This document shows, in pieces, positions 18,234 through 63,829 of a stretch of DNA of 64,000 bases. The translations under genes and the position numbers were made by a program. The DNA is from a virus (lineage: Duplodnaviria; Heunggongvirae; Uroviricota; Caudoviricetes): the IMG/VR virus record IMGVR_UViG_3300024270_000010; one strand, 5' to 3'. The notes beneath the pieces are model-generated. The model was not told the origin of the DNA. It was given only the letters and a program-made list of their open reading frames with translations, and did not search any database. Position 1 is the stretch's first letter; each line of letters starts with the position of its first letter.

Positions 18234-18262
18234 ATTATATCATATTTTTTTATAAAAATCAA
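18234..18262 (-). promoter_or_regulatory. Class-II cassette promoter TTGATTtttataaaaaaatatgaTATAAT
   Basis: Copy of the conserved 29-bp TTGATT-N17-TATAAT element with extended -10 TGaTATAAT. Confidence 0.6.
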
Positions 18263-18273
18263 TTAAGATCTAT

Positions 18274-19002
18274 TTAACTGAAAAATGAATAACTTTGGTA
18301 GGTGTTCAAATCCAAAAGACAGAACTCACCCATAAAGAATCCACCAGTGTCAATGCACACTTTATGGCCGTCCGCATACCAGATGGGACCGGACTCCCAA
18401 TCGATATACAAATCTTCACTGATATAACATACAGGAGTATGACCATGAACAACAAGGAAGTCATCATAACCACCCTCGTTCAGTGGGTCCCAGGGATCGA
18501 AATAGTCATCTCTGTTCCAGATAAGATGCTCATCATCGGGAATGATAAGCTCTTTATCTTCGTCAGCTTCAGGATCACTCCAATAAGGAGTATAACCCGC
18601 ATGACTCAGCAGAATTCTCATTCCAAGAGCATTAGTATACTCTACATGGGTAGGCAGGTCACGCAGATACTCATACCACTTCATGCGGTCAGGGTCCCGC
18701 TCCCAAGCTTCCATTGTAGGTCGTCCACCATTGTGAGAAGAAAGAGAATAAGAGTGATAATCCCACATGAAACCATCATCGAGATAATCTTTGATGGCCT
18801 TTACGAGCATATCTTCATGGTTGCCCTTAATGTAAACAAATCGAGGGTCTGCCGCAACTGCCTTGATACATTCATAGGACTGCAGGCCGCGGTCGCACGC
18901 ATCGCCCAGAAAATAGACCTTATCATCGGGCTTTAAAAATGCTTGAATCTTACGAAACACTTCTAAATGCCCATGCAGGTCGCCCAGCGCATATGTAGCC
19001 AT
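18274..19002 (-). CDS. ApaH/PrpE-like serine/threonine phosphatase or diadenosine tetraphosphatase (metallophosphoesterase)
   Basis: GDLHGH ... GDACDRG ... GNHE motif series of the PPP family. Confidence 0.7.
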   Translation of the reverse strand: MATYALGDLHGHLEVFRKIQAFLKPDDKVYFLGDACDRGLQSYECIKAVAADPRFVYIKGNHEDMLVKAIKDYLDDGFMWDYHSYSLSSHNGGRPTMEAWERDPDRMKWYEYLRDLPTHVEYTNALGMRILLSHAGYTPYWSDPEADEDKELIIPDDEHLIWNRDDYFDPWDPLNEGGYDDFLVVHGHTPVCYISEDLYIDWESGPIWYADGHKVCIDTGGFFMGEFCLLDLNTYQSYSFFS

Positions 19003-19187
19003 TATTCTCCCTCCTTTATTACTACTGGAATAAGTGTAAACATATAATTCGTAATTCCCATTGCCGCAAATGTTTCATGGGCCTCGTCATGATCTTTTGC
19101 GAGAAGGCCATTCGGCAAAGGAATTCTGTGAATTACATTATCCTTTTCTGTAAATATAAAGCCTTTTACTGCATACATATTTATCAC
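19002..19187 (-). CDS. hypothetical protein (61 aa)
   Basis: ORF with TAATG overlap to the upstream gene. Confidence 0.3.
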   Translation of the reverse strand: MINMYAVKGFIFTEKDNVIHRIPLPNGLLAKDHDEAHETFAAMGITNYMFTLIPVVIKEGE

Positions 19188-19192
19188 TCACT

Positions 19193-19221
19193 TTCTATAT
19201 ATATTATAACATATTTTTTAT
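19193..19221 (-). promoter_or_regulatory. Class-II cassette promoter
   Basis: TTGATTttttataaaaaatatgtTATAAT on the minus strand. Confidence 0.55.
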
Positions 19222-19235
19222 AAAAAATCAAAAAA

Positions 19236-19268
19236 GAAAAAATCCCCCGGATTTTATTCCGGGGGACT
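19236..19268 (-). terminator. Rho-independent terminator (cccccggaataaaatccggggg + T-run)
   Basis: GC stem followed by UUUUUU on the minus strand immediately 3' of the lipoprotein gene and 5' of the next promoter. Confidence 0.55.
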
Positions 19269-19272
19269 AAAT

Positions 19273-61246: not shown

Positions 61247-61285
61247 AAAAAATCCCCTCTCCGAAGAGAGGGGAAGGATTCGAGA
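61247..61285 (-). terminator. Rho-independent terminator (cccctctcttcggagagggg) for the convergent minus-strand gene
   Basis: Stem-loop plus U8 on the minus strand. Confidence 0.55.
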
Positions 61286-61336
61286 TTACTTGATAACGGC
61301 GTAACGCTCGCTATCCAGCTTCTGCGGCCGTGCCGA

Positions 61337-62089
61337 TCAAGAGATTGGTAAGTCAGGCTCACGCACGAGATATTTATCGCCCATTATCATTTCTAATGTA
61401 ATTTTATCTTTTTCCCAATATGGGATACGAACCAATGGGATATTATGGGTTAATGCATATTCATTTTTAACAGCATCCCTTTGTTTTTGTAATTCTAATC
61501 CACCCCACTTATCAACACTATGATAATGTTGTTCTCCGTCAAATTCAATAAGGCGTACTATTTTATCATTTTCAACAATAGCAAAATCAAAACGACTTTT
61601 TGGCAAATCTAAAAATACATATTCCTCAATGAAATTAATACCTTCAAAGATTAAACAATTTAAAACATTGGTCGCACCAACTGAACGATGATAACAGCCA
61701 CAAGAAACGGTTCTATTTTCATCTTTTCTGCGCAATTCATGGCCTCGAACTTCAATAATTTTTCCACAATCGCATTGACAAATCCAATATAATTCTCCGC
61801 CATTTCCTTTGCGCTCACTGCGTTGTTTAACAACCAATTTACCAAATCGTTTGTTTAACATTTCTTCTTCACTTTTTTGGTATTTTGCTTTTCTTAATTG
61901 CTCTTGACGATAGCAACCACAGCTCGATATATCACCATTTCTCAATGAGATACTTTTTACACTTTTTATTGTGCCACATTCGCACTAACATATCCAATAA
62001 CTGCCACCAGTTGTTTTTCTATTTTTATCTCTCTCTAAGACAGTTAATTTACTAAATTTTTGATTTGTTAAATCTATTAATTTAGACAT
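61337..62089 (-). CDS. Zn-ribbon repeat + Vsr/DUF559-like endonuclease-domain protein (paralogue 3), one in-frame TAG (61985-61987)
   Basis: AAGGAG RBS, ATG 62089. First repeat GGSYWIC[TAG]CECG aligns with the second repeat ELYWICQCDCG, so TAG matches Gln. C-terminal IEFDGEQHY...NIPLVRIPY. Confidence 0.5.
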
Positions 62090-62162
62090 TACACTCAACT
62101 CCTTCTATAATATATAAGGAATCTTTTGGAATATTAAATCTGTTTTGTCCAGAAATAACAAA

Positions 62163-62200
62163 AAACCCGCCTCGCCGAACGGCGAGACGGGCCGGCCGCA
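62163..62200 (-). terminator. Rho-independent terminator (cccgtctcgccgttcggcgaggcggg + T-run)
   Basis: GC-rich stem, UUUUUU on the minus strand, 3' of the vWA gene. Confidence 0.55.
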
Positions 62201-62201
62201 T

Positions 62202-63713
62202 TTAGCCGATAACCTCATAGCGAGGAGAGTCCAACTTCTCCATCATAAGATCCCAGCCAGTTTTGCCAGAAAGAATCTGTTCAAAAATACTAGGACTCAT
62301 ACCAGAAACATAAGAAATGTCTCTTACTCCAATATCTTCAGGGATATTGTTCTGTCTTGCCTGAACGTTCCAGTAGATAAGCTTAGGCATACGGTACCCA
62401 TGACGAGCCCACTTATCTCTAATAGACTCCATCAAGGTCTGAGGGTTCCAGGATTGACGACCATAACCATGACCAGTTCCTGCATCAAATTCCATATCTG
62501 ACAGAATTAGAATGTTCTGAGGCAGCTCATCCTGGCCGCAACCATTATTCAGAGCGGTCTGCAGCAACATATCGAAGGTGGCTTCGATGTTGGTGCTCTC
62601 ACACAGGTTGGTGCGGTAGATACGATAGACCTTGTCGCAGAAGTCTACGCCGCTGGTCTCGATCAGCTGAGGACGAGTGGAGAAAGATACGTAGTGGTTT
62701 GCGAAGGGGCCGTTAGCACGCTCGGCGCAGTACAGACCCAGGGAAATAGCTACGTTCAGAGGAGTTGCGTCACCGCCGTACCAGGTCATGGAAGCGGAGG
62801 TATCAACAACAGCCAGACCATTGAAGGACTTGCCGTTGAAGTAATCCTGCAGGTTCTCCCAGTACTTGTTCACCATCAGACGATCGGTGTTATCGATAGG
62901 CAGATGGCAAGCACGCAAAGCCTTGGAAACAACCTCGTAAGGATACAGAGCCTTGGCGTTAACCTTGGTGGTAGTATCCTTGGCGAAAGCCTCGTAGGTC
63001 TTGACCTCGGGATTGCGCTTCATACGCTCAATGTCGTGACGAGCAAAGGCGTTCTTGTACTTGATACCGGCCTTAGAAGGGATCTTATCGAACTCGATCT
63101 CATCCCAACGACCCTCGGACATCAGACGCTCCAGGACGTTGATGCGGGCACGCAGAACAGACAGAGTCTTACGGTACTGCTTGGGGGTCATGCCAATGAA
63201 CTTACGAACCTTGGCAGCAGTCTTCTTAGTCTTCACAGAGGAAGTGTTCTCAGAAGGCATCCACTTACCCAGCAGAGAAGGGGTCTTACATTGGACGTCC
63301 AAAGCCAGCTGATGTTTGACGATGTTCAGTGCGTCAGCCTCCAGAGGAGTACCGATGAACACGAACAGGTCATCCCATCGACCGAACTCAGGGACGTGAG
63401 TCAGGTTACGACGCATAGCGTCAGTATCGTAGGAAGCCAGCCACTTAGTAGCGACACGGAAGAACCGGCGCTCACCCTGGCCACCGCGCACGTCACGGAT
63501 GTAGAACAGACACTTCAGAGCGTAAGAAGGATTCTCGTCGAAAGCCTTCTTAAACAGGAAGATAACATCTTCATCGGTGCGGGTACGGTAGGCCGCACCC
63601 ATAGCGAACAGGTCCATCAGACCGTCCATGGTAGACTTATGAGTCAGGGCACCATTCTCAGTGCGAGTGTAGTTAGAAGCGGACTTCATACCTTCCAGAA
63701 AAATATTGCTCAT
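62202..63713 (-). CDS. von Willebrand factor A domain protein (TROVE/DUF2828-like N-terminal region), 503 aa
   Basis: MIDAS motif DTSASM with downstream vWA blocks; function unknown. Confidence 0.5.
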   Translation of the reverse strand: MSNIFLEGMKSASNYTRTENGALTHKSTMDGLMDLFAMGAAYRTRTDEDVIFLFKKAFDENPSYALKCLFYIRDVRGGQGERRFFRVATKWLASYDTDAMRRNLTHVPEFGRWDDLFVFIGTPLEADALNIVKHQLALDVQCKTPSLLGKWMPSENTSSVKTKKTAAKVRKFIGMTPKQYRKTLSVLRARINVLERLMSEGRWDEIEFDKIPSKAGIKYKNAFARHDIERMKRNPEVKTYEAFAKDTTTKVNAKALYPYEVVSKALRACHLPIDNTDRLMVNKYWENLQDYFNGKSFNGLAVVDTSASMTWYGGDATPLNVAISLGLYCAERANGPFANHYVSFSTRPQLIETSGVDFCDKVYRIYRTNLCESTNIEATFDMLLQTALNNGCGQDELPQNILILSDMEFDAGTGHGYGRQSWNPQTLMESIRDKWARHGYRMPKLIYWNVQARQNNIPEDIGVRDISYVSGMSPSIFEQILSGKTGWDLMMEKLDSPRYEVIG

Positions 63714-63800
63714 AATTTAATTCTCCTTTTTCTCATTGATTCCTCTTGGACAAGAGGAAAATTTTATTTTGTATTTCTTATCTCTTTACCTTACAAATAT

Positions 63801-63829
63801 ATTATATCATATTTTTTTTGAAAAATCAA
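63801..63829 (-). promoter_or_regulatory. Class-II cassette promoter; its -35 box overlaps the TAA stop of the upstream HNH gene
   Basis: TTGATTtttcaaaaaaaatatgaTATAAT. Confidence 0.55.

Follow-up and report, generated by a model that had tools for sequence, protein, structure and literature searches.

The closest described counterparts of the element treated here are the promoter(early)–stem-loop elements (PeSLs) of the T4-type phages, in which a σ70-like early promoter is joined to a stem-loop terminator and which number about 50 per genome in hyperplastic regions (Arbiol et al., 2010; Comeau et al., 2014; PMC2839356, PMC4122927). PeSLs mark the boundaries of insertions and deletions (indels) between close relatives, and it has been proposed that they recombine and release mini-circles (PMC2839356, PMC4122927). 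Here we describe an element of comparable organization, a 29-nt promoter repeat that we term P, in a 64,000-nt stretch of a Caudoviricetes genome (IMG/VR record IMGVR_UViG_3300024270_000010; this whole stretch is called the window below). Individual copies are named by their right-end coordinate (P47518 occupies 47490-47518), and labels such as L325 denote the related loci and contigs used in comparison. We consider it likely that P heads each standard-code, presumably early, unit of a ~206-kb jumbo phage of gut Clostridia, and that its copies recombine and thereby move cassettes.

Like the PeSLs, P is a repeated σ70-type promoter coupled to a stem-loop, present in tens of copies and associated with accessory genes; single genes lie between two copies where a relative has one, indels and replacements fall at the elements, and homologous recombination between copies is the proposed mechanism. 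Unlike the PeSLs, it has an unrelated sequence and belongs to a different lineage, viz., a ~206-kb gut-Clostridia phage with a SigA-like sigma factor and TAG recoding; its core is far more uniform (29 nt, ~92-95% identity); its hairpin has a fixed placement, upstream, with the U-tract overlapping the -35 box; and it is common to phages whose sigma factors are 43-75% identical, and joins two such distant phages. The conserved A/T block of PeSLs is also lacking (≤0.6 bit), with only 3-5 T upstream of the -35 box of P and then a GC-rich stem. In its architecture and evolutionary behavior, as far as sequence can tell, P would be a PeSL-type element in an unrelated phage group, and the Clostridia host type, the phage sigma factor, and the TAG recoding argue for a non-T4 lineage.

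The extended early promoters of T4, T5 (e.g., P_N25), and SPO1 are strong and, like P, near-consensus sequences that head early units and are conserved beyond the hexamers, in the spacer and start region, and they are used by the holoenzyme of the host primary sigma factor. They are less uniform between copies than P and, unlike it, are not systematically fused to terminators, and we know of no demonstration that they act as recombination joints between distant phages. In lambdoid phages, according to the work of Hendrix and colleagues and the modular theory of Susskind and Botstein, morons are accessory genes that come with their own promoter and terminator, and short conserved boundary or linker sequences between modules have been proposed to guide exchange; unlike in these, one promoter sequence serves all the P cassettes and is itself the homology, with crossovers mapped inside it. 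In being long, nearly invariant, and repeated through the genome, P resembles the T7-, phiKZ-, and AR9-type phage-polymerase promoters (for AR9, PMC5312081); unlike them, it consists of two boxes at σ70 spacing, the -10 being extended, and the phage encodes a sigma factor. No RNA polymerase domain was found among the 40 open reading frames (ORFs) of the window that were scanned for domains, which took in every ORF of at least 200 aa.

A uniform, probable promoter repeat at the head of co-oriented gene units

A mismatch-tolerant search of the window with the 29-mer TTGATTTTTATAAAAAAATATGATATAAT returned 12 matches at up to three mismatches, against 0.00 expected from 100 dinucleotide shuffles, and 16 matches at up to five (Table 1). 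All 16 lie on the minus strand and none on the plus strand, the minus strand being the coding strand for 87 of the 102 ORFs obtained by a simple non-overlapping selection; every copy is intergenic and sits 20-45 nt upstream of a Shine-Dalgarno (SD) sequence and start codon. The distance from the -35 box TTGATT to the -10 box TATAAT is 17 nt in each of them, and each has the TG at -15/-14 that defines an extended -10. The spacer, which includes a 12-bp palindrome (TTTTTATAAAAA), varies solely at three central positions and at the N of TGN, and conservation continues for ~12 nt beyond the -10 box as ATATAT-R-N-A-A. Generic σ70-like promoter matches are not enriched over shuffles in the 28-48 kb region (44 vs 40.9), where only the specific motif stands out.

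The initial annotation had recorded about 15 near-identical copies with these boxes, an invariant 17-nt spacer, and an extended -10; all 14 of its positions and its gyrB variant were recovered with that anatomy, and the copy at 52724-52752 had been overlooked. Its promoter reading also fits, on in silico grounds, with the bipartite σA consensus, the strict co-orientation with genes, the fixed place before SD and ATG, and purifying selection across the clade. P is probably an extended σA-type promoter, with TTGATT, a 17-nt T5-w-A7 spacer, a TRTG-extended TATAAT, an ATATAT discriminator, and an R-N-A-A start region.

At 10 of the 16 copies a GC-rich hairpin (-15 to -25 kcal/mol) is followed by a T-run that abuts or merges into the -35 box, in keeping with the earlier statement that the U-run of the preceding terminator mostly runs into this box. 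Between 28 and 48 kb there are 31 terminator-like sites, compared with 15.4±4.0 in shuffles, and the best of these adjoin P. The units delimited by successive copies hold from one to at least eight genes, and the one that starts at 18.2 kb, with ~7.6 kb free of further copies, probably holds 15 or more, so that the 1-4 genes per cassette given in the initial annotation prove too few. The same annotation placed a stop codon inside the -35 box in two instances: this is plausible at P29973, and it fails at P63829, where the TGA within the box is in another frame and the upstream gene (GmrSD/HNH) ends with TAA 7 nt ahead of the box. The terminator nearest to P33855 stands apart from it because orf119 is inserted between the two. 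P33855 and P20559, both of which are devoid of a fused hairpin, have a similar ~20-nt upstream sequence, TTCTAAC-c-AAAAA-CTTCT (33856-33880 and 20560-20582, minus strand), which includes a real stop codon at 20.5 kb and is non-coding at 33.8 kb; it may be the remnant of a shared cassette end.

Conservation of the repeat across related phages

Sigma-bearing relatives were gathered with a profile, a single-protein search of viral contigs having given one locus only. The loci obtained in this way carry 1-15 copies of P each, together with a phage sigma factor 43-75% identical to that of the window, and the motif search in related phages recovered P throughout the clade: the same consensus, TTGATTTTT-w3-AAAAA-w-TATGnTATAAT-ATATAT, was seen in each of the 17 lineages examined. 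Across ~80 related loci the copies are always co-oriented with the genes, with none on the opposite strand. Conservation among the 208 unique copies gathered from relatives extends to ATATAT-r-y-AA, positions that the search pattern did not cover.

The identity of the P core is 0.953 between orthologs, 0.923 between paralogs within a genome, and 0.927 between non-orthologs of different genomes. Concerted evolution was considered and ruled out on this basis, within-genome paralogs being no more alike than between-genome non-orthologs. The hairpin region adjoining P is only 0.665 identical, and the genes of the relatives are ~67-85% identical at the DNA level; the hairpin sequences differ between sites, and orthologous stems keep their pairing through compensatory changes. 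In four relatives of 20.9 kb P occupies the same syntenic sites, i.e., before MVP, F11, sigma, RNase T, nicotinamidase, and NAMPT. Since orthologous copies retain variants of their own (AAATG before MVP, TGT before F11/F28, and TGA before F21/F35), each copy is under purifying selection, rather than being the product of recent spread or gene conversion.

Crossovers within the repeat

The initial annotation had likened the arrangement to a moron-acquisition scaffold and possibly a recombination hotspot that generates mosaicism, and had proposed a check of whether cassette boundaries coincide with breakpoints among relatives. The idea is supported by crossovers mapped at base level inside P in L325, L323, L115/L116, L195, and L123/L124. 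From the first base of P47518 onward, the contig L325 (ERZ27248436:k141_1895590) matches 12.6 kb of the window at 100.000% identity; on the other side it matches the window-type contig L331 at 99.9%, and this match extends across the copy of P that follows a suppressor tRNA gene. The switch of parent falls within 41 nt that are the same in both parental copies. The sequence of L325 is best described as a 22.6-kb deletion between direct P repeats. In the contig L323 (from ERZ27248326), the 17.3 kb that begin with the first base of P41739 agree with the window at 99.988% identity, while the 3,575 nt upstream agree at 100% with another phage (sigma 48% identical), in which they precede the P-sigma unit of that phage. 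Here the change of parent falls in 30 consecutive nt that all three sequences have in common, and L323 would be a hybrid of two distantly related phages joined at P.

L115 and L116 were assembled independently, from different samples; in both, the MVP gene and its hairpin are located after the RNA-ligase unit, the overlap between the tracts of homology to the MVP and F28 cassettes of the window coincides exactly with P, and MVP is preceded by a degenerate P. L195 (from ERZ808026) has the appearance of an L117-type genome that has lost the sequence between the P before RNase T and the P before nicotinamidase. Joints of this kind are also seen in other lineages, with block ends inside P in L123/L124 and 13 nt from P in L079/L088. 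The other block end of the former pair (~18511 in L123, ~17972 in L124) is inside a tRNA gene, near the anticodon loop, and tRNA genes may constitute a second kind of recombination joint.

The window-specific ORFs adjoin P in eight of the 11 blocks that vary with respect to the relatives. When gene content was compared per interval between consecutive collinear anchors, it differed in 24 of 26 comparisons for intervals containing P and in 20 of 69 for those without it, a contrast that is inflated by shared ancestry, by double counting of both sides of one event, and by within-gene intervals. Between near-identical pairs, 12 of the 26 unique block ends fall inside P, as against 0.8 expected (maximum of 4 in 200 randomisations), a figure to which the first two sources of inflation also apply.

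Taken together, these features suggest the following mechanism. RNA polymerase with primary-sigma specificity would initiate ~7 nt downstream of the -10 box, at R, the early reader being the host σA, with the phage SigA-like sigma factor possibly also serving later. Each unit of one to at least eight genes would usually end at an intrinsic terminator whose U-tract overlaps the next -35 box (UUUU-UUGAUUUUU), with RNA 3' ends predicted within UUUUUGAUUUUU; termination and the next initiation would thereby be packed into ~60 nt and the units insulated from one another. The resulting identical direct repeats of 30-58 nt, dozens per genome and also present in relatives, would allow homologous recombination by which whole expression-ready cassettes are deleted, relocated, or exchanged.

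Alternative readings

Several observations weigh against the reading of P as a σA-type promoter whose copies recombine. Promoter and terminator activity, early timing, and the identity of the reading sigma factor are all inferred; the spacer and start region are more invariant than recognition by σA alone is known to require, and an extra reader is conceivable; six of the 16 copies are without a fused terminator; and intervals without P also vary, the statistics being inflated as stated above. The L323 and L325 joints are each represented by one metagenome contig and had no match in IMG/VR, where the window-type strain was also not seen. The coverage of L195 is only 1.3x; L327, a window-type contig that shares its sample with L323, terminates 33 nt short of P41739 on the upstream side, implying that the assembly graph branches there; and the variable gene next to P41739 is homing-endonuclease-like. 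Selfish-gene insertion also contributes, and P is one route to mosaicism, not the sole one.

With respect to the polymerase, the phage sigma factor encoded under P35381 is closest to Firmicutes SigA (E ~1e-77), and has TKERIRQ, PANMVE, and ATYWIRQ in place of the TRERIRQ, PVHMVE, and ATWWIRQ of the latter; we take the unusual residues to be at positions equivalent to R584, H455, and W433 of E. coli σ70. These non-canonical contact residues would be compatible with a private promoter, read mainly by polymerase carrying the phage sigma or dependent on a phage factor for the spacer and start region, and hence of a middle or autoregulated class. Such a promoter would also account for selection on nearly all of its ~40 positions, spacer included, and for a -35 box of TTGATT rather than TTGACA; moreover, all the P-bearing loci fetched via sigma encode a sigma factor. 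Nevertheless, we consider it unlikely. The sigma gene is itself driven by P, so that something must read P first, and P comes close to the σA promoter consensus, its -10 being extended. Among P-bearing phages the DNA-contact residues vary (K/R, H/N, W/Y) under an unchanged motif, with no co-variation between the two, and L121/L122 have fully canonical SigA residues and yet nine copies of P. The sigma-bearing loci that lack the motif are uninformative in this regard, being high-GC contigs with canonical SigA residues that are most likely bacterial. Finally, a cellular promoter of Ruminococcus flavefaciens MA2007, a cultured rumen bacterium (NZ_JHXF01000026.1; L233 6527-6557), matches P at 26 of 29 positions, including the T/A-tract spacer, and precedes a metallophosphoesterase gene whose chromosomal surroundings are ordinary. 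On the simplest view, P is read by a holoenzyme of primary-sigma specificity, with the host σA acting first.

The link to mosaicism could instead be indirect, with P marking operon boundaries that tolerate indels while illegitimate recombination or a homing endonuclease carries out the changes. This would explain the variable intervals without P, the endonuclease-like paralog downstream of P41739, and the breakpoints located inside a tRNA gene (the right end in L123/L124) or more than 1 kb from P (L002/L061). We give it only a small chance, as the four mapped events switch within 30-41 nt common to both parents, with no extra bases and with 100% or 99.9% identity in the sequence flanking the switch on both sides, and the concentration of block ends noted above falls on a target of ~70 nt.

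A further possibility is that the sharp joints are assembly chimeras of co-occurring phages or of two places in one genome, as the single-contig status of L323 and L325, the lack of a match to their joints in IMG/VR, the low coverage of L195, and the end of L327 might indicate. Chimerism is quite improbable because the shared 30 and 41 nt are far below the 141 that the contig names indicate as the final k, and dozens of repeat copies would be expected to break contigs at low k, not to join them; furthermore, the MVP relocation is identical in two independent assemblies, and the same pattern appears in other lineages and data sets. Lastly, the high copy number, near-identity, and spacer palindrome of P might recall a mobile or structural repeat (MITE- or REP-like), a packaging or replication signal, or a recombinase site, which is scarcely credible for an element that has a single, gene-matching orientation, is always intergenic just ahead of SD and ATG, shows perfect σA bipartite spacing in all copies, holds stable orthologous positions between phages ~70% identical, and has unrelated flanks with no terminal inverted repeats or target duplications noted in those displayed.

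Implications of the proposed promoter-mediated shuffling

Returning to P as a recombining σA-type promoter, the mechanism is one known in principle, which is here unusually clean and takes in exchanges that involve distant jumbo phages. Until now, descriptions of PeSL-type cassettes have been confined to T4-type phages, and in the present case the crossovers are resolved to 30-41 nt within the promoter. Large phages may quite generally use promoter-mediated shuffling to acquire, lose, and exchange accessory genes, which often act in anti-defence. More tentatively, and with some doubt on our part, P and its leader could be a universal joint that lets divergent jumbo phages swap cassettes and, at the same time, a private code read by a phage factor or sigma. 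If so, a promoter under transcriptional selection would let phages too divergent to recombine otherwise (sigma 48% identical) exchange cassettes cleanly, and a private transcription code would be coupled to a program of standard-code early and TAG-recoded late genes. In practical terms, P can serve to mark out the transcription units, and the genes likely to be early, of jumbo phages that are uncultured, as well as the places where assemblies and strain comparisons will break; it also provides, for Clostridia-type hosts, a promoter–terminator part that is compact and under strong selection.

Table 1. Copies of P and other features of the window, ordered by position; mismatches are relative to the 29-mer used in the search.
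Feature	Position	Strand	Mismatches	Remarks
Class II promoter	2096..2124	-		
Class II promoter	2358..2386	-		
Class II promoter	4401..4429	-		TTGACA-N-AAAAATTTTTT-N-TATAAT; upstream of ligA
P copy	10250..10278	-	5	Upstream of gyrB; no fused hairpin
P copy	18234..18262	-	0	No fused hairpin
P copy	19203..19231	-	4	Hairpin ~19241-19268 upstream
P copy	20531..20559	-	0	No hairpin; stop codon of upstream gene 15 nt away
P copy	21980..22008	-	0	Fused terminator hairpin ~22010-22034
P copy	26125..26153	-	3	Fused hairpin ~26154-26183; heads NAMPT/NadE unit
P copy	29211..29239	-	3	Fused hairpin 29238-29270; heads nicotinamidase–Sir2 unit; 3' boundary of cassette 29272-29922
Window-specific gene	29272..29922	-		216 aa; between two P copies where relatives have a single P
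P copy	29945..29973	-	4	Fused hairpin 29974-29997; 5' boundary of cassette 29272-29922, a single gene specific to the window
P copy	33827..33855	-	0	Terminator 33947-33970, 92 nt upstream
SigA-like sigma gene	34409..35314	-		301 aa; regions 1.2-4, no region 1.1; under P35381
P copy	35353..35381	-	0	Fused hairpin 35382-35410; drives phage sigma gene
P copy	39736..39764	-	0	Fused hairpin 39763-39797
Endonuclease-like gene	41008..41640	-		In-frame TAG; directly downstream of P41739
P copy	41711..41739	-	1	Fused hairpin 41742-41764; crossover site of the putative inter-phage hybrid L323
P copy	44877..44905	-	0	Fused hairpin 44908-44931; 3' boundary of MVP cassette; joint of MVP relocation in L115/L116
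MVP-like gene	44943..47444	-		MVP shoulder and Vault_3 domains; one-gene cassette between two P copies
P copy	47490..47518	-	1	AAATG variant; hairpin 47534-47561; 5' boundary of MVP cassette; the putative L325 deletion has its crossover here
TAG-recoded block	47574..62242	-		In-frame TAG read as sense; with ~6.3 kb past the right end of the window, the segment absent from L325
P copy	52724..52752	-	4	
Class-II-like promoter	58124..58152	-		Fused to upstream hairpin; inside the TAG-recoded block
P copy	63801..63829	-	2	Upstream of DUF2828/DUF7788 gene

Class II promoters and the TAG-recoded block

The second promoter class that the initial annotation assigned to ligA and its neighbors, of the form TTGACA…AAAAATTTTTT…TATAAT, was found at three sites. 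The proposed absence of this class from the late block after 47.5 kb does not hold, given the class-II-like copy there (Table 1). The two classes differ in their spacer tracts, T5/A7 in P vs A5/T6 in class II; as possible reasons for the conservation of the whole spacer and start region of P, the former may be relevant to DNA shape or to a regulator, and its T-run past the -35 box could possibly double as terminator U-tract.

The genes under P read normally in the standard code, and the cassette region gains almost nothing from TAG read-through. Within the P-poor recoded block, by comparison, long frames emerge only when TAG is taken as a sense codon: the frame at 47574-51779 comprises 1,402 codons with three in-frame TAGs, and that at 54910-56094 has 11 TAGs and matches the reverse transcriptase domain RVT_1 across them (E = 2.5e-19). 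The contig L325, with 100% identity to the window over the 12.6 kb compared, encodes 18 tRNA genes at 1005-9914, the last of which (9840-9914) has the anticodon CUA (CTA) of an amber suppressor and lies 12 nt upstream of P. In such phages the late or lytic genes have been proposed to be recoded (bioRxiv 10.1101/2021.08.26.457843), an idea with which these observations agree. The code usage would also lend indirect support to an early role of the standard-code P units as opposed to a late one of the TAG-recoded block.

The reverse transcriptase at 54910-56094 is near a tail-fibre-like ORF and an ORF with an Mtd_N domain (58207-59457, 59467-59943), a neighborhood that suggests a diversity-generating retroelement. 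A candidate template/variable pair for such an element, 56120-56375 and 53076-53340 (80% identical), was rejected, as it shows no adenine-specific mismatches. In the same region the N-terminal parts of ORFs at 54277-54624 and 56960-57434 are ~80% identical, and a 202,962-bp contig breaks here.

The endonuclease-like gene downstream of P41739 is paralogous to the one at 61337-62242 (33% identity, E = 2e-33); both have an in-frame TAG, one of them has a DUF2726 domain, and the former is absent from L115 and L117. The two look like members of a family of free-standing homing endonucleases.

Genome, host, and gene content

A megablast search of 20 kb against GenBank phages gave no match, and proteins identical to those of the window are encoded on metagenome contigs of 183-220 kb. 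A phage genome of ~206 kb, circular or terminally redundant, is suggested because both ends of the 202,962-bp contig fall within the 54.4-57.3 kb region of the window. The P motif is present in more than 112 stretches of large viral contigs and in more than 120 stretches of contigs from gut metagenome-assembled genomes (MAGs) of sheep, yak, deer, cattle, chicken, rabbit, and human. The P-bearing MAG contigs are mostly binned as Clostridia (Oscillospiraceae, Acutalibacteraceae, and Ruminococcus), and this binning points to gut Clostridia as the hosts.

The window codes for both subunits of gyrase (A and B), an NAD-dependent ligase, a PhoH-PIN protein, SPFH proteins, an RNA ligase, Thg1, several phosphoesterases, and a full NAD-salvage set; no Rfam family and no tRNA was found in it. 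As had been noted earlier, the P units carry accessory genes, viz., NAD-salvage, RNA-repair, phosphoesterase, sigma, and MVP genes; orphan genes are also headed by copies of P. The NAD set (20805-29185) spans three P-driven units with genes for NMNAT-like, NADAR, NAD synthase, NAMPT, Sir2, phosphoribosyltransferase, and nicotinamidase proteins, and may counter host defences that deplete NAD. Among GenBank phages, the MVP-like protein has matches in three uncultured phages of 462-735 kb only, at 39% identity.

A lysin-like region (10915-12586) corresponds, in a 99.99%-identical contig, to a single gene of 556 aa with lysozyme, peptidase M15, peptidoglycan-binding, and SH3 domains, and is represented in the window and in another contig by four ORFs. 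Simple TAG read-through was ruled out as the explanation, the four ORFs of the window alternating between two frames, and indels, recoding, or frameshifting are candidates for the split.

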